From a virus, in the IMG/VR virus record IMGVR_UViG_3300027749_000058, positions 1 to 64,000 of that record: 64,000 nt of DNA. One strand, 5' to 3'. The position numbers and the translations under genes were made by a program. Numbering within the stretch: position 1 is the first letter of the stretch; each line of letters begins with the position of its first letter. This document shows positions 3,009 through 51,561 of the stretch, one piece after another. The notes beneath the pieces are model-generated. The model saw only the letters and a list, made by a program, of their open reading frames with translations, ran no database searches and had not been told where the DNA came from.

Positions 3009-3142
3009 ATAATTTTATTAATTAAAAATCTTAATTGTCCACTATAAACAATTAAGATTTTTTCATGCGTTAACATATATGAAATACCTTTACTAATCTA
3101 ACATTAATTATTATTATTTTTAATAAAATAAAATAAAACAAA

Positions 3143-4009
3143 ATGAATATAATATTTCAAATTAGCGGTGGTATTGGTAAAGTAATTGCTAGTACAGCTA
3201 TTTGCGCATCAATAAGGGCACAGTATCCCAACGATAAACTTATTGTTGTTTCTGGTTATCCTGATGTGTTTTTAGGTAATAAGAATGTTGATAGGGCATA
3301 TGCTTTTGGTCAACAAGCTTATTTTTATAAAGAGTATATTGAGAATCAAGAAATAAAAGTGTTTGCTCATGATCCTTATTTAGAAGCAAAGCATATCAAA
3401 CAAGAAGAACACCTTATCGAAACTTGGTGTAAATTGTATGATTTACCTGTAACTAAAACTGTTGGAGAACTATTTCTTACACAAAGAGAAATTGATTTCT
3501 TTAGCAAAAAGTTTGTTTCCGATAAACCTATTTTTTTAATGCAAACTAATGGTGGATCCGATGCAGAACAAAAATATTCATGGGCAAGAGATATTCCTAG
3601 CTATGTAGTAGAGAATATTATACATGAGTTTAGAGATGAGTATAATATGGTTCATATAAGAAGAGATGACCAACTTAAATATGAAGGAACATTTGGTGTA
3701 TCAGATACATTTAGAGCTCTACTTGTTCTTATAGGCATGAGCGAAAAAAGGTTATTGATGGATAGTTTTGGAGAACACGCAGCAGCATCTCTAAATAAAC
3801 CATCCACAGTATTATGGATTGCAAATAGCCCTAAAGTGTTTGGGTATGATTTACATACAAATATTATAGCTAACCATGAAACAGTTGTACCAGAATTGAG
3901 AGGAGCTTATCTAGGAAAGTATAATATTGGTGGAGATCCAGTAGAATTCCCCTATAATAATGAAAAAGAAATCTTTAACATAGATACTATAATTAAATCT
4001 TTAAAATAA
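3143..4009 (+). CDS. Putative glycosyltransferase (GT9/heptosyltransferase-like)
   Basis: N-terminal GGIGKVI and C-terminal DSFGEHAAASLNKPSTVLW resemble the GT9 DSGxxHxAaA motif. Confidence 0.65.
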   Translation: MNIIFQISGGIGKVIASTAICASIRAQYPNDKLIVVSGYPDVFLGNKNVDRAYAFGQQAYFYKEYIENQEIKVFAHDPYLEAKHIKQEEHLIETWCKLYDLPVTKTVGELFLTQREIDFFSKKFVSDKPIFLMQTNGGSDAEQKYSWARDIPSYVVENIIHEFRDEYNMVHIRRDDQLKYEGTFGVSDTFRALLVLIGMSEKRLLMDSFGEHAAASLNKPSTVLWIANSPKVFGYDLHTNIIANHETVVPELRGAYLGKYNIGGDPVEFPYNNEKEIFNIDTIIKSLK

Positions 4010-14325: not shown

Positions 14326-14544
14326 ATGAAAGAATATTATATTAAATTAAAGAGTTTTTTTGTTAAAAAACCAACGAAAAAACTAACATGGTGTGAATCA
14401 GATTACAGTAAAGGTAAAAAATGGGCAATGTCTCAACCACACCCTTTTAAGAAAGGAAAAACATTATGGGATTTGTGTTATGATAAAAGAGAAAGTGTTT
14501 ATACAATAGATAATTTAAATAAGTTTTTATTTAACGAAATTTAA
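14326..14544 (+). CDS. Hypothetical protein
   Basis: ORF track. Confidence 0.45.
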   Translation: MKEYYIKLKSFFVKKPTKKLTWCESDYSKGKKWAMSQPHPFKKGKTLWDLCYDKRESVYTIDNLNKFLFNEI

Positions 14545-15205
14545 ATCCTGTTAATTGTTCTATATCTTTTAATTCAACTTGATGAGAATGTAATCCTGTA
14601 GGTTTTATTGGTGAGTTAACAAAAAGATATGCTTGAAATTCTTTTGACTTTTTAAAATACAATACTTTCCAACACATTGCTGGTACTGTAATTCTTCCTA
14701 TTAGTTTATTAGGATGTATTGTTCCTGTACTACCTGCCCATACAAATATAGAATCTTTTAATATAGATTGATCTCTTGTGTATTCTTCTAAGGTTTTCCA
14801 ATCACCACGATTGAGAGATGCGTATTGTGGCGTCATATTAGAAAAATAAAAACATTCTGTCATTGCCACAGGACCTAAACATTTATTACTAGCAGCAGGA
14901 CACATATGTCCTCTATCAAGTCCAGATCCTACATAGTCATTGGTAATACTGGTGTATATTATTAAATCTGGATCAGCTTGAAATTGGTCTTTACGTGGAA
15001 GTGGATTAGGACAATCATTTTTTGCTTTAGTTTCCCACCATTCTACTAAAACGGGGTAACGTAAAGATTTGGAAAATACTGTGGTGTAATTTAAATGTTT
15101 AATACGAATTGTGTCGTCTTGAGCTTTTGCAGCAACTAAAGATAAAATAAAAAGGATAAACCCAATTAATGCCGGTAACCAAAAATTTTTAAATGACTTT
15201 TTCAT
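14531..15205 (-). CDS. Secreted DNA/RNA non-specific endonuclease (NucA/EndoG family)
   Basis: DRGHMCPA, FYFSNMTPQ, LNRGDWKTLE; N-terminal signal peptide ending AKA-Q. Confidence 0.92.
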   Translation of the reverse strand: MKKSFKNFWLPALIGFILFILSLVAAKAQDDTIRIKHLNYTTVFSKSLRYPVLVEWWETKAKNDCPNPLPRKDQFQADPDLIIYTSITNDYVGSGLDRGHMCPAASNKCLGPVAMTECFYFSNMTPQYASLNRGDWKTLEEYTRDQSILKDSIFVWAGSTGTIHPNKLIGRITVPAMCWKVLYFKKSKEFQAYLFVNSPIKPTGLHSHQVELKDIEQLTGFKFR

Positions 15206-17415: not shown

Positions 17416-17455
17416 TGGAAAAAACTTATCAAAAATCTCGTTATAATGGAAAATA

Positions 17456-17487
17456 TTTGTCAGTATCAAAAATACCCCCTATATTTG
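17456..17487 (+). promoter_or_regulatory. Bacteroidetes-type primary sigma promoter
   Basis: TTTG (17456) - 20 nt - TATATTTG (17480). Confidence 0.6.
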
Positions 17488-17515
17488 TATTCTGATTCTA
17501 AAATACTCAAAAGCC

Positions 17516-17549
17516 ACGGGGTGGGAGACTGGAAAAATTCCCACCCTGT
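17516..17549 (+). ncRNA. GC-rich hairpin downstream of promoter (putative sRNA)
   Basis: acggggtggga / tcccaccctgt stem, no ORF. Confidence 0.4.
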
Positions 17550-17616
17550 ACTTAAAAAAAAAGTTTGGTGGGTTCAGAAATAGTTCTTATCTTTGTGAAA
17601 CAAATACGGAAACAAT

Positions 17617-17724
17617 ATGAAAAAAGAAAAGACATATTTTGATGGTATTATGGTTGGATTTGGAATAACCGCTATAATTTATTCAATCTTATTAGGTGTT
17701 GTGATTAGAATGTTAACAAAATAA
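17617..17724 (+). CDS. Small membrane peptide (35 aa, not in ORF track)
   Basis: MKKEKTYFDGIMVGFGITAIIYSILLGVVIRMLTK; own TTTG-N20-TATCTTTG promoter (17564/17588). Confidence 0.55.
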   Translation: MKKEKTYFDGIMVGFGITAIIYSILLGVVIRMLTK

Positions 17725-17772
17725 ATTGGGATGGATGATGTTTAATCAAAAAGTTTTTTGTATCTTTGTATA

Positions 17773-17818
17773 GAGTTTGGAACTTACAGGTAATGAAAGA
17801 TACTCGGTATCCAAACTC
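17773..17818 (+). ncRNA. Putative small structured RNA
   Basis: Starts 4 nt after TATCTTTG (17761); closing stem gagtttgga/tccaaactc. Confidence 0.5.
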
Positions 17819-17868
17819 AAAAAAAAGATTTGACGGTTTGAAAAAGTCTTCTTATCTTTGAAAAAGAA

Positions 17869-17942
17869 ATCGGGAAGAAAGTAAAAATGTACCTGAAGTG
17901 AGGATGAAAAAATCATCACACCAAATGGTTTGGAATCCCGAT
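17869..17942 (+). ncRNA. Putative small three-way-junction RNA
   Basis: Own promoter (17829/17853); atcggga/tcccgat stem enclosing gtga..gatg/catcac and ccaaa/tttgg hairpins. Confidence 0.5.
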
Positions 17943-18005
17943 AATAGTTCTTTGATTTATTATTTTATTCGTGTTATTTTTTTCTTTTTAGCGATATTTA
18001 TTATT

Positions 18006-18164
18006 ATGGGAAGAAATAAAAAAGAAAAAGAAAAACAAAAAGTTAGATTTGGAATTAGTATCTCGCCTGAAGTAAATAAAACTTTAGATTCTTTAATGAT
18101 TAACAAATCGAAACTTATTGAGAGTTTATTAAAAAAATATTTAGATGACAAAAAAGTGTTCTAA
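18006..18164 (+). CDS. Ribbon-helix-helix-like DNA-binding protein
   Basis: KVRFGISISPEVNKTL...NKSKLIESLLKKYL; ATG at 18006 after TATTTAT. Confidence 0.6.
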   Translation: MGRNKKEKEKQKVRFGISISPEVNKTLDSLMINKSKLIESLLKKYLDDKKVF

Positions 18165-18687
18165 ATGTAATATTGAGAAAGATTTATCTGAATTTAATTC
18201 AAGAAAAGGAATTAAAGATGGTAAAAGACCTGAATGTAAAATATGTGGAAAACAGGTAAGAAAAGTTTATTATGAAAGACCTGAAATTAAAACTAAATAT
18301 AAAACTAGTAAGTGTGAATATAATAAAATAAATTCTGATAAAGTTAAATCTCGTAGGAATAGATGGTTCAGAAAAAAAACAGAAACAGATATTTTATTTA
18401 GATTAAGAAGAAATTTAAGAAATAGGATTTATAAATTTATTGGAAAATCATCAATAAGGACAAAAGATATTGTTGGAATAGAATCTAATGAACTAAAAAA
18501 TTATCTTGAAAATCAATTCAATGACGGGATGTGTTGGGAAAATTATGGTGAGTGGCAAATTGACCACATTATACCATTATCATCGGCAATAACTGAAGAA
18601 GAAATTTATAAACTATGTCATTATACAAATCTTCAACCATTGTGGAAAATAGATAACATAAAAAAAAGTAATAAAATTATATGGTAA
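18145..18687 (+). CDS. HNH (homing-type) endonuclease with N-terminal Zn-binding CxxC pairs
   Basis: CSKC...CKIC; WENYGEWQIDHIIPLS...HYTNLQPLWKIDNIKKSN. Confidence 0.85.
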   Translation: MTKKCSKCNIEKDLSEFNSRKGIKDGKRPECKICGKQVRKVYYERPEIKTKYKTSKCEYNKINSDKVKSRRNRWFRKKTETDILFRLRRNLRNRIYKFIGKSSIRTKDIVGIESNELKNYLENQFNDGMCWENYGEWQIDHIIPLSSAITEEEIYKLCHYTNLQPLWKIDNIKKSNKIIW

Positions 18688-18757
18688 GATAGCTCAGGTC
18701 TGGTAGAGCAATAGTGTGAAATACTATGTGCCGTTTGTTCAAATCAAACTCTTACCA
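18683..18757 (+). tRNA. trnF: tRNA-Phe(GAA)
   Basis: ggtaaga/tcttacc acceptor; atagt-gtGAAat-actat; T loop ttcaaat. Confidence 0.85.
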
Positions 18758-18839
18758 CGAAAGTCTCCAAAATTTATTTTGGTATTTTCAACAATAAAGT
18801 TTGACGGTTTGAAAAAACTATCTTATCTTTGTAAAAGAA

Positions 18840-19103
18840 AAAGACAGAGGTTAATTTTTAAGTGGTGTTTTCTATAATCATCCTTAGTTTTTTCTTCCTC
18901 TTTAAACCAAGAGAAAATGGTAATAAAATATAGTAAGGTTTGCAGGAATGGAATATCCTCAATTCACCTAAAGTAATTAAAATCATATCAAGTTCTTTTT
19001 ACGGTGTTTTTATCTTTGATGTAAAACAAAAGAATGTCTTTCTTTACGAGTTGCCGACTCAAATGAAGTTCTAAGAGATGAACAATTTTCTTAGGATATT
19101 CGC
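18840..19103 (+). ncRNA. Structured ncRNA, copy 1
   Basis: Promoter 18800/18824; closing stem aaagaca/tgtcttt; agagg/cctct; ctata/tatag; no ORF. Confidence 0.75.
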
Positions 19104-19151
19104 CAATAAAGTTTGACAGTTTGAAAAAACTATCTTATCTTTGTAAAAGAA

Positions 19152-19414
19152 ACGGACAGAGGTTATTTTTTAAGTGGTGTTATTACAATCATCCTTAATT
19201 CTTTCTTCCTCTTTAAACCAATAAAAGAAACAAACAAAATGTAAAAAGGTATATAGGAATGGAATATCCTGAATTCACCTCAAGTAATTAAAATCATATC
19301 AAGTTCTTTTTACGGTGTTTTTATCTTTGATGTAAAACAAAAGAATGTCCTTCTTTATGAGTTACCGACTCAAATGAATTTTTAAGAGATGAACAATTTT
19401 CTTAAAATATTCGC
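19152..19414 (+). ncRNA. Structured ncRNA, copy 2
   Basis: Promoter 19112/19136; ggaca/tgtcc; agagg/cctct; ttaca/tgtaa. Confidence 0.75.
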
Positions 19415-19462
19415 CAATAAAATTTGATTGTTTGAAAAAACTTTCTTATCTTTATAAAAAAA

Positions 19463-19733
19463 ACGGACAGAGGGTTTATTTTCAGTGGTGGTTTCCCATA
19501 CTCACCCATGAGATTTGTAATTTTCCTCTTTAAACTAAAAACAAATCCAAAATAAAACACGGGAGGATTATAAGAATGGTATTCTTTGTCTACCCTTAAT
19601 ATGATAAAATTAACCAAGTCTTTTTTAGTTGTTTTTGACTTTAAATAAAAACAGAAAGATGTCCTCTTTCAGGGTAAACGGAAAATCAACCCATCTACAA
19701 ATGATTCCACAATTTTTCCTGACGGGGAATTCT
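19463..19733 (+). ncRNA. Structured ncRNA, copy 3 (diverged)
   Basis: Promoter 19423/19447 (TATCTTTA); ggaca/tgtcc; agagg/cctct; tccc/ggga; gatttgt/acaaatc. Confidence 0.7.
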
Positions 19734-19764
19734 AAGGAGACACGACGGTGTCTCCTTTTTTTTT
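19734..19764 (+). terminator. Intrinsic terminator closing the ncRNA array
   Basis: aaggagacac-gacg-gtgtctcctt followed by T run. Confidence 0.85.
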
Positions 19765-19798
19765 GTGATATTTAACTATTTATAATAAAATAGAAAAA

Positions 19799-36958: not shown

Positions 36959-37993
36959 TTAATTTGATAGCGGCATTTTTATTGATGGATGACTTTGATA
37001 ATTCTGTAATACAATATCTTCTAATGTATATTCCGAAATGTCATTAACAAACCTATCAGATATTTCTACTGTTGGTAATTCGTATGGTTCTCTATTTAAC
37101 TGTTCTTTAATCGGTTCTATATGATTAAGATACAAATGCACGTCTCCTAAATTACCTATCAATTGGTCAGGAACCATATTAACTTGTTTTGCTATCATCA
37201 TTAATAATAATCCATAACTTGCTATATTGAACCCCAAACCGAGTCCAGTGTCGACACTGCGTTGATTCCACATTAATGAGATTGCTCGTTTGGGAACGCC
37301 AAATTCATCCATTTGTTCTTTTGTGATTTCTTCAAACATAGTTAAATCAACACGTTCTTTCTCACTCAATTCTCTCGTATACATTTGAAATCCATAATGA
37401 CAAGGCGGTAAAACCATTTTAGGCAAATCTGCCACATTCCAAGCATTAACCATTAAACGTCTTGAGTCAGGATTTGTTTTAAGTTCGTTGATTAGATTTT
37501 GTATTTGATCTGTTTCTGTTTCATCAAAATGTGCATCAAATCCTGGCATGTCAATTTCATATTGTGTCCATCTTCTCCATTGCGCACCATAGATTGGTCC
37601 TAACTCACCCCACTTCTTAGCAAACTCATCATCGGTTTTAATTTTATTGATAAACTCTTCCTTTGTTAATAATTCTAAGTTAGAGTATCCCCATACGTTT
37701 TTAGAGTAGTTAGCAAAGCAATCACCATCCCAAATGTGACAATCATTATCAACTAAGTATTTGATATTAGTATCTCCTTTAAGAAACCAAAGTAATTCCG
37801 TGCATATCGACTTCCAATGCATCTTCTTAGTTGTAAGCAATGGGAATCCATCTGACATATTATGCCTGAACTGAATACCAAACAATGATTTGGTTCCTGT
37901 TCCTGTTCTATCTGATTTGTTAAAACTTTGGTCTTCACTCACTAATAGTGATAGTAAAGCTTTATACCAGTCATCTAAATAATTGTATTTCAT
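36959..37993 (-). CDS. thyA: Thymidylate synthase
   Basis: DRTGTGT, FPLLTTKK, ELLWFL, LGPIYGAQWR, LPPCH, QRSVD, FNIASY, HLYLNH. Confidence 0.97.
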   Translation of the reverse strand: MKYNYLDDWYKALLSLLVSEDQSFNKSDRTGTGTKSLFGIQFRHNMSDGFPLLTTKKMHWKSICTELLWFLKGDTNIKYLVDNDCHIWDGDCFANYSKNVWGYSNLELLTKEEFINKIKTDDEFAKKWGELGPIYGAQWRRWTQYEIDMPGFDAHFDETETDQIQNLINELKTNPDSRRLMVNAWNVADLPKMVLPPCHYGFQMYTRELSEKERVDLTMFEEITKEQMDEFGVPKRAISLMWNQRSVDTGLGLGFNIASYGLLLMMIAKQVNMVPDQLIGNLGDVHLYLNHIEPIKEQLNREPYELPTVEISDRFVNDISEYTLEDIVLQNYQSHPSIKMPLSN

Positions 37994-38183: not shown

Positions 38184-38437
38184 ATTAATCCTCCTTGTTT
38201 TTTCCAGTCTTCTTCCATTTGGTTTCTACCTGAATTGTAATTACCGTAATCACCCCACATTTCTAATAAAGATTCGAATGCTTTTTTTAATTTATTGTAT
38301 TTTTCTTCTGATTCTTGTTGTCCTAATTGGTGAGATTGATACATACACTTAATTATTGACCTTTTATCTAAAAAAGAATGGTGTGGAATTGTGTTTTGAT
38401 ATATTTCTTCTAATTGTTTTTCTAATTTTTCATTCAT
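38180..38437 (-). CDS. Hypothetical protein
   Basis: ORF track, operon packing. Confidence 0.5.
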   Translation of the reverse strand: MNEKLEKQLEEIYQNTIPHHSFLDKRSIIKCMYQSHQLGQQESEEKYNKLKKAFESLLEMWGDYGNYNSGRNQMEEDWKKQGGLI

Positions 38438-39522
38438 GGTTCAATCTCCTTTTGCCAAAATGGCTTTGTGTATTTTGGTCTAACTAACTTCCAAATGTAA
38501 TCAGAATAATCTTTATTATCAAACATTCTGAATAATATTGGTCTTAAAAATTCTTCTTGTATCATAACCCATTCAGCAATTTCTTTTTTTGGTGGTAATT
38601 CTCCATAACGAGGATGACCTGATAAGTTCTCAATAAAATTATCGTACAATTTGCCTGCATTCTCTTGAATACTCATTTTAGAATACCTAAGGTCTCTGAT
38701 TGTGGTTTTAACCCACTTATCAAATTCGTCAGGGACTCTATCAAGTAATTCATTAATATCTTTACCATCTTTCAAATACTCCCAAATATCAACATTTGAG
38801 AATCCAGTTAAGATTCTATGGAGACGAACATATTCATTTCCCTTTATTTTCATTCTGAACCCATTTCTAAACCGAATGACATAACCCTCACGGTATTTAT
38901 CGATCATTGATTTAAGGGTCTTATAATCACTAATTCCGTCATATGATTTAACGGTGGGCATATTGGTTTCCTCTCCAATTAACTTTAAAGAATTGTACTC
39001 TAACTCTTTTCCTGATGCGTTACTAATCATTGATAAAACAACTAAAGATTCGTCATCTCCATAATTCACGCATATCATATTTTGAGGATATATTATTTCA
39101 ACTAATGTGGTATATCCTTTTGGTATTGGATGAACATTGTATTTTGAATCTAAAATCTCTTTTCCTTTAATTGCTTGTTCAGAAGTAAAAGATCCTTTGC
39201 TTGATAATATCCATTTTCCTTCATACCAAAATAAAATACCTAATGAACCATCCAGTTTTTCAAATACTTCAAAAGGTTCATTTGGTATTTCTTCTGGTTT
39301 GTGTTCTTCGATATTAAAAAACTTATCAAACCCTTTGGCAATAACATTCCCTTCTTGGTCTAAAATAAGACCACGACATTGTTTGGTGATTTCATCCCAC
39401 TTATTTTCATACTGACAAGTACGAGAATAATTCCAAATAGAAATAGGAAGGGTCGGGTGGTTATTTTTAACCACCAAACCCTTCTCCAAATAATCATTTA
39501 ATATGTTTAAATCAAATTTCAT
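38434..39522 (-). CDS. RNA ligase (T4 Rnl1-like)
   Basis: CRGLI, KFFN, motif I EKLDGSL, EGYV, MKIK. Confidence 0.9.
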   Translation of the reverse strand: MKFDLNILNDYLEKGLVVKNNHPTLPISIWNYSRTCQYENKWDEITKQCRGLILDQEGNVIAKGFDKFFNIEEHKPEEIPNEPFEVFEKLDGSLGILFWYEGKWILSSKGSFTSEQAIKGKEILDSKYNVHPIPKGYTTLVEIIYPQNMICVNYGDDESLVVLSMISNASGKELEYNSLKLIGEETNMPTVKSYDGISDYKTLKSMIDKYREGYVIRFRNGFRMKIKGNEYVRLHRILTGFSNVDIWEYLKDGKDINELLDRVPDEFDKWVKTTIRDLRYSKMSIQENAGKLYDNFIENLSGHPRYGELPPKKEIAEWVMIQEEFLRPILFRMFDNKDYSDYIWKLVRPKYTKPFWQKEIEP

Positions 39523-51443: not shown

Positions 51444-51561
51444 ACCAAATCCTAAATGGGACTCAAAAAAGTTTGAATTTTGAATATAATTTCTTATCTT
51501 TGATAAAAGTGGATAAAATGTGTAGTAGCCACAGGGAAGGTACCTCCCACTACACTCTTAA

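Follow-up and report, generated by a model that had tools for sequence, protein, structure and literature searches.

We describe a 2.3-kilobase (kb) stretch of phage DNA which we read, with a probability of about 0.6, as an island of stable-RNA genes where host-type promoters each head a short cassette. The island lies in the IMG/VR virus contig IMGVR_UViG_3300027749_000058, a record of 110,935 base pairs (bp) with an estimated completeness of 37% (CheckV), of which 64,000 nucleotides (nt) were analysed; this analysed stretch is called the window and gives the coordinates used below. The source is an uncultured freshwater phage, probably of the jumbo-phage class and with a Bacteroidota host. 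The island encodes four covariation-supported RNA families: the large type A and type B RNAs, a 46-nt hairpin RNA (hp46), a 74-nt leader element of a transfer RNA (tRNA) transcript and a small RNA behind the first promoter. None of them matches any Rfam family. Type A and type B belong as paralogues to a single new family of ~300 nt, which is compact and multiply pseudoknotted and has invariant loops.

Host-type promoters and the large RNAs behind them

Seven boxes of the form TAnnTTT(G/A) had been proposed in the initial annotation, at 17480, 17588, 17761, 17853, 18824, 19136 and 19447, and all seven are present. The claim that TTTG stands exactly 20 nt upstream of six of them also holds, all six matches of the composite pattern TTTG-N(18-21)-TAnnTTTR being 32 nt long. 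These six sites have the two elements of a Bacteroidota sigma-A promoter, a -7 box TAnnTTTG and TTTG at -33 at a fixed distance, while the seventh, in front of hp46, has the -7 box only. TAnnTTTG is the -7 box of the published Flavobacterium sigma-A consensus (PMC9723704). Shuffled sequence holds the composite pattern 10.8 +/- 3.1 times and the window 24 times, a count that none of 100 shuffles reached, and 6 of the 27 matches of the whole record fall within 2 kb (Poisson estimate ~1e-5). The promoter at 17829, said to resemble those of the downstream array, is 86% identical to them over 48 nt (E 2.7e-9), and the hp46 box, when compared across 54 aligned loci, has invariant TA and TTT and a G in more than 90%. 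The promoter features are as follows.

17456..17487, + strand: promoter P1 (TTTG, 20 nt, TATATTTG), pattern match, conserved in 7 related loci
17564..17595, + strand: promoter P2, pattern match, homologous to the promoter of an open reading frame (ORF) of ~85 amino acids (aa) in relatives
17761..17768, + strand: -7 box of the hp46 promoter, TATCTTTG, no TTTG at -33
17829..17860, + strand: promoter P4, pattern match, nearly identical to the array promoters
18800..18831, + strand: promoter of type B copy 1, pattern match
19112..19143, + strand: promoter of type B copy 2, pattern match
19423..19454, + strand: promoter of type A (-7 box TATCTTTA), pattern match, conserved across the family

An extended -7 box, YTTATCTTTG, is also found before the other tRNA or RNA genes of the phage, at 51472, 53921 and 54646, as if it were reserved for stable-RNA genes.

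The last three promoters belong to a tandem array. Three large RNAs had been noted there, and three repeats of 311 bp are found at 18790-19765, with one terminator at 19734-19757. The three large RNAs proposed for them are more precisely of two paralogous kinds, type B occurring twice and type A following once.

18838..19101, + strand: type B RNA, copy 1, tandem repeat, paralogue subfamily
19150..19412, + strand: type B RNA, copy 2, tandem repeat, paralogue subfamily
19461..19760, + strand: type A RNA, ~300 nt, 13 helices including pseudoknots, ending in the intrinsic terminator 19734-19757

Contigs with the same gene order were first reached through the LamG-type protein encoded downstream of the array. 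A 20-nt motif of the large RNA gave 9 contigs from IMG/VR and 119 or more from metagenomes, and about 120 related contigs (L numbers below) were used for comparison of the island. With nhmmer, 148 matches were obtained, 112 of full length and 90 unique, at pairwise identities of 0.51 to 1.0. The DNA sequencing runs containing the island stretch are from freshwater and lake metagenomes. Type A was also seen on very long contigs, namely L306 (321,283 bp), L246 (158,753 bp) and L264 (146,495 bp), lengths in keeping with a jumbo phage genome of which the 111-kb record would make up 37%, as estimated by CheckV.

The type A alignment holds 42 sequences at most 93% identical to one another. RNAalifold, run on the MAFFT alignment, recovered five helices only, as variable helices were off by one column in some rows; a partner-swap test and a hand-built structure were therefore used. 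When partners were swapped between sequences, the cognate strands paired better in 13 of 14 helices (z -3.2 to -12.5), the exception being P3, which is invariant. The hand-built structure of 63 pairs has 86.2% of its cells paired, compared with 76.1% after shuffling and 41-56% when the partners were slid, and compensatory changes are seen at 43 of the 63 pairs (344 cells vs 144 shuffled). In this and the other structure tests, none of 500 shuffles was as high in paired cells, compensatory changes or covariation score, and slid controls were far lower.

The resulting fold of type A comprises helices P1 to P9, pseudoknots PKa to PKd and the terminator, with at least three pseudoknots in the family and with the invariant blocks GGACAG, AGUGGUGGUUCCCCAUACUCACC, AAACA..GGG, GUCC and GACGG. 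The loop of the P9 hairpin (UGUCC) pairs with the 5' GGACA, PKa crosses P2, and the P5 loop CCUU pairs with GAGG, both strands switching together to CAG/CUG in five sequences. The P8 hairpin and the terminator carry an identical invariant C-GACG-G loop. Type B keeps P1, P2 and P3, with a different P3 loop, and is devoid of the 3' domain and of the strong terminator. Its P3 loop pairs downstream, through CUAUA/UAUAG in copy 1 and UUACA/UGUAA in copy 2, two compensatory changes apart. Type B lies 5' of type A in six other loci as well (L354, L276, L311, L249/L273, L292 and L244/L298).

Neither type reads as a protein-coding gene, having no conserved ORF, a median longest ATG-initiated ORF of 27.5 aa on inconsistent strands, and insertions and deletions that are not multiples of 3. 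Nor does type A, with its branched and pseudoknotted fold, resemble the ~180-nt rod with a central bubble that characterises 6S RNA, and no Rfam model (6S or Flavo-1) matched. Two further resemblances were set aside: the complementarity of UGGUGGUU in P3 to the 3' end of a tRNA-like gene (AACCACCA) shows no covariation and is regarded as coincidence, and the likeness of the P3 motif to 5S ribosomal RNA found no support in Rfam.

Contigs assembled from RNA libraries of four lake studies cover 19007-19741 at 99-100% identity, and in three of the four runs their depth is 35-76. Both junctions of the array, between the two type B copies and between copy 2 and type A, are spanned at 100% identity, so that the B-B-A order is seen in independent samples, and the contigs end at 19723-19741, by the terminator. 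These contigs are consistent with an abundant read-through transcript of the array. RNA-contig cover was missing from the flanking ORFs, and this was not used as evidence.

Small RNAs, tRNA-Phe and the mosaic make-up of the island

The elements described upstream of the array, namely a GC-rich hairpin at 17516-17549, a 35-aa ORF at 17617-17724, a 46-nt stem at 17773-17818 and a 74-nt element at 17869-17942, were all recovered. The judgement that the island is mostly non-coding has to be revised, because about one third of it is coding: a ribbon-helix-helix (RHH)-like ORF and an HNH endonuclease ORF had been overlooked, and so had a tRNA-Phe gene.

17492..17552, + strand: small RNA candidate P1hp, a conserved single-stranded 5' part followed by the GC-rich hairpin 17516-17549
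17617..17724, + strand: putative hydrophobic ORF of 35 aa, a replacement derivative of the ~85-aa ORF of relatives
17773..17818, + strand: hp46 RNA, a 9-bp stem (17773-17781 with 17810-17818) and a 28-nt interior
17869..17942, + strand: 74-nt leader element of the tRNA transcript, an irregular hairpin
18009..18164, + strand: RHH-like ORF, 51 aa, Pfam RHH_3 at E 6.5e-4 and 20 bits, slightly under the cut-off
18145..18687, + strand: HNH / endonuclease VII family ORF, 180 aa, phrog_1035 at E 6.4e-24
18683..18758, + strand: tRNA-Phe (GAA) of normal shape, found by ARAGORN, Rfam tRNA (RF00005) 57 bits vs cut-off 29
18767..18782, + strand: trailer hairpin of the tRNA with TATTTTC behind it, resembling a weak terminator, retained in relatives with changes of sequence

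The family of hp46 is the most widespread of the small RNAs, with 96 loci (54 unique) in which the 28-nt interior is nearly invariant and the stem is 94.9% paired. Compensatory changes affect 7 of the 9 stem pairs (7 of the 12 pairs tested in all) and amount to 59 cells against 8.5 in shuffled alignments, and two of the pairs hold 27 G-U cells, which point to the + strand. The RNA begins 4-5 nt past its -7 box and has no U-tract of its own. In the 74-nt leader (21 unique sequences) 97.8% of the cells are paired, with compensatory change in 7 of 18 pairs; its inner hairpin is deleted in two loci, and the whole element is absent from L220 and L223. It had been drawn as a three-way junction and folds instead as one irregular hairpin. 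For both elements, none of the 500 shuffles matched the compensatory changes. P1hp was found in 8 loci (7 unique) with a conserved 5' part and a hairpin that varies in sequence and keeps its pairing. A 45-aa ORF that overlies this hairpin (17446-17583) was considered and rejected as coding, as insertions and deletions in the relatives are not multiples of 3.

The 35-aa ORF matches other loci only at its first 14 nt (17617-17630) and over 26 nt from 17715 across the stop codon. The first of these matches is part of a 31-nt match that starts in the leader at 17600, and the middle of the ORF is unique to the window.

Promoter P4 heads the 74-nt element, the RHH-HNH cassette and the tRNA. The protein cassette is 740 bp long, and the HNH stop codon overlaps the 5' end of the tRNA. 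At the nucleotide level the HNH ORF is 72% identical to genes annotated as HNH in Flavobacterium phages; it has no Pfam match at E <= 0.01 and is probably a homing endonuclease; the RHH-like ORF is present only in the window and in L347. In both of these loci the cassette comes with a tRNA-Phe of normal shape (17950-18790 in the window, 2220-3000 in L347), and at the same site L311 (93% identical; 3095-3225) and most other relatives have an aberrant tRNA-like gene. The site in the relatives is bounded by the shared joints AGTTCTTT and CGAAAGTC. The aberrant tRNA-Phe-like gene was found 5' of type A in L220 (9487-9592), L222 (9488-9600), L236 and 25 other loci; a single nucleotide bulges from the 5' strand of its acceptor stem, its D loop contains an inserted hairpin that varies, and its anticodon loops, though variable, are mostly GAA. 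The Rfam tRNA model gives 23.9 bits for the gene of L236, below the cut-off, and no match for that of L222. Perhaps the cassette and the normal tRNA together represent a homing-endonuclease allele linked to its own, resistant version of the tRNA, which makes this phage tRNA locus a candidate site of homing. The hairpin-plus-ATATTC layout of the tRNA trailer also closes each type B unit.

It was predicted that the cassette content between conserved promoters would vary, and comparison across the related contigs bears this out. hp46 and type A are near-universal, and the other cassettes (tRNA, leader element, P1 small RNA, ORF85/ORF97, type B and RHH-HNH) are present in some loci and absent from others. 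The predicted duplication of small RNAs is likewise seen, as B-B-A in the window and B-A in the six other loci listed above, and so are the traces of recombination at the repeated promoter, with joints in or beside promoters and at the short motif AGTTCTTT, which recurs as a joint among the loci. Recombination at the repeated promoters and at short shared joints would explain both the variable cassettes and the B-B-A duplication, and is the way in which we expect the island to change.

Proposed function and competing explanations

In the stable-RNA island that we propose, sigma-A-type promoters of the host (TTTG at -33, TAnnTTTG at -7) would head, in order, an RNA made of a seed and a hairpin, a small ORF, hp46, the tRNA-Phe precursor, two type B units and one type A unit; the precursor would begin with the folded 74-nt leader and be interrupted here by the RHH-HNH homing-endonuclease cassette. 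Transcription would be carried out by the host polymerase early in infection. The host-takeover arsenal and the polymerase sink suggested in the initial annotation are conjectural roles for these RNAs. Only the last unit has a strong intrinsic terminator, and the units are therefore probably read both singly and as read-through transcripts which would later be processed. Type A and type B may accumulate as stable trans-acting RNAs, whose probable partner would be a protein or an RNA with a link to tRNA or translation, a role also suspected for ROOL and GOLLD. As a description of what these two RNAs do, partner binding is tentative, and a ribozyme is distinctly unlikely.

Several points weigh against this reading. 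The early timing follows from the promoter type only, and the trans-acting, partner-binding role is without direct support. The sequences compared are related, so that independent compensatory events are fewer than the cell counts suggest. RNA-library contigs may contain DNA and cannot show transcription starts, their ends being a weak hint. The Bacteroidota host rests on the promoter type, on A-rich start contexts and on one HNH similarity to Flavobacterium phages. Moreover, the phage has no cultured relative, and its best protein identity is 38% (RNA ligase).

ROOL (RF03087) and GOLLD (RF01998) are large, pseudoknot-rich noncoding RNAs of phages and prophages, often located by tRNA genes, for which the function and any partner protein are unknown, many GOLLD members exceeding 800 nt (10.1101/2024.12.08.627333). 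Type A and type B are likewise phage-encoded, rich in pseudoknots and found beside tRNA genes; they differ in their length of ~300 nt, in their conserved sequences and in forming tandem arrays of paralogues with a promoter for each unit. This likeness of context, together with the lack of a partner protein gene nearby, would suit an RNA-only assembly of the ROOL or GOLLD kind, in which molecules joined by loop-loop contacts into an oligomer or a cage would carry tRNAs or some other cargo, and so would the loop shared by P8 and the terminator and the copy-specific loop pairings of type B. We nonetheless regard this as unlikely. ROOL measures ~580 nt, and type A and type B are half this size or smaller; the ROOL and GOLLD covariance models gave no match at E <= 10 in the window and at E <= 5 in L222 and L236; and a single molecule can satisfy every pairing that was identified, no loop both conserved and self-complementary having been found.

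Another possibility concerns hp46, which might be a cis-acting antiterminator like put, made right after the promoter and modifying the polymerase, which would then pass the weak hairpins of the island without stopping. Its start so close to the -7 box, its missing U-tract, its near-universal position 5' of units that end in weak terminator-like hairpins and the RNA-library contigs that bridge units all agree with such a role. It bears no similarity to the put RNA of HK022, however, and an ordinary small trans-acting RNA fits equally well; we consider the antiterminator unlikely.

Stable-RNA genes of the kind proposed here have a precedent in phage T4, whose species 1 and 2 (rnaD and rnaC) are stable noncoding RNAs of unknown function that are encoded next to the phage tRNA genes, expressed with them and excised from the tRNA precursor. 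The island RNAs similarly adjoin a phage tRNA gene, and the phage carries an RNA ligase resembling T4 Rnl1 (38434-39522, - strand; phrog_562, E 5.6e-63); the T4 RNAs are smaller, and each island RNA has its own promoter. Such a ligase points to tRNA repair as a defence against anticodon nucleases of the host and makes a tRNA-centred conflict a plausible theme. One could go further and suppose that type A and type B, the aberrant tRNA-Phe-like RNA and hp46 belong to a single system based on RNA, in which a compact machine (ribozyme or RNA-only assembly) acts on tRNA and perhaps shields or repairs phage or host tRNA against host anticodon nucleases beside the Rnl1-type ligase; this is speculative and, in our estimate, quite improbable. 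No RtcB gene was found in the 110,935-bp record. Copy number that changes by recombination is known from pseudo-ToxI of phage PhiTE, a noncoding RNA whose tandem repeats recombine. The phage-borne RNA of the island would also vary in copy number through recombination; ToxI units are 36 nt long and part of the ToxN toxin system, whereas the island has units of ~311 bp with promoters and no toxin partner.

Type A might alternatively be read as a cis-acting leader, an attenuator of the riboswitch or T-box type that uses the terminator 19734-19757 to regulate the structural gene which follows. The terminator does lie ~40 nt 5' of the next start codon, type A is near a tRNA-Phe gene, and its UGGU and UUC motifs recall a T-box. 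Yet the gene 3' of type A belongs to at least five unrelated families across the loci, which argues against a leader of any one gene, and type B copies have no gene behind them, so that the large RNAs appear independent of what follows. In addition, no T-box or riboswitch model matched at E <= 10, UGGU sits in the 5' hairpin P3 and not in an antiterminator beside the terminator, and an alternative pairing of the terminator strand was not found. The set of features that marks a T-box (RF00230, an antiterminator bulge, an amino-acid-related gene) is not present, the downstream genes being variable and of structural or unknown kind. A further motif that is conserved, TTTAACTATTTATAA, separates the terminator from the gene. 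These observations make a leader very improbable.

This motif TTTAACTATTTATAA, located in 19763-19798 after the terminator of type A and before the structural gene of LamG type, occurs at the same place in L222 and L223, and may be a phage-specific, possibly late, promoter.

Finally, the density of repeats and promoters in AT-rich DNA recalls phage origins primed by transcription, and the joints are clearly recombinogenic. We nevertheless give hardly any weight to a role of the elements at the DNA level (as replication origin, packaging site or recombination hot spots, the hairpins being only terminators), of which the origin and the terminators were also raised in the initial annotation. The compensatory changes and frequent G-U pairs fit a + strand RNA only, RNA-library contigs cover the array, and GC skew has no turning point near 17-19 kb. 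Nor is it a feature of terminators to have nearly invariant stretches of 24-28 nt such as those of the P3 and hp46 hairpins (interior loop and part of the stem).

Searches for known partners and for copies elsewhere help to place the stable-RNA island. Neither the TROVE domain (PF05731) of a Y RNA/Ro system nor a reverse transcriptase (PF00078) as in retrons or DRT systems was found in the 110,935-bp record, an absence that is not final at 37% completeness. A search for antisense targets within the phage genome gave only the trivial self-match on the opposite strand. By blastn against 50,697 phage records the HNH gene alone was matched and the type A/B RNA was absent. A scan of bacterial and archaeal genomes gave 6 matches in unrelated taxa, about the number expected by chance and of at most 16 bits with the family profile; these were rejected, and thus no host or prophage copy of the large RNA was found in that scan. 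Short patterns taken from the three copies of the window gave either no matches or matches that nhmmer showed to be due to chance.

Structured phage RNAs beside tRNA genes, such as ROOL, GOLLD and the stable RNAs of T4, are long-standing puzzles, to which the island adds four families without Rfam entries from abundant lake phages. At ~300 nt and with several pseudoknots, type A and type B are small enough for structure determination, and their paralogue arrays provide natural variants. The mosaic layout, in which RNA genes move as cassettes of a promoter and an RNA, offers a route to finding more of them.

Two other genes on the - strand of the window were noted: one for a DNA/RNA non-specific endonuclease of the secreted type, which lies just 5' of the island (14531-15205; PF01223, E 1.9e-32), and one for a thymidylate synthase (36959-37993).

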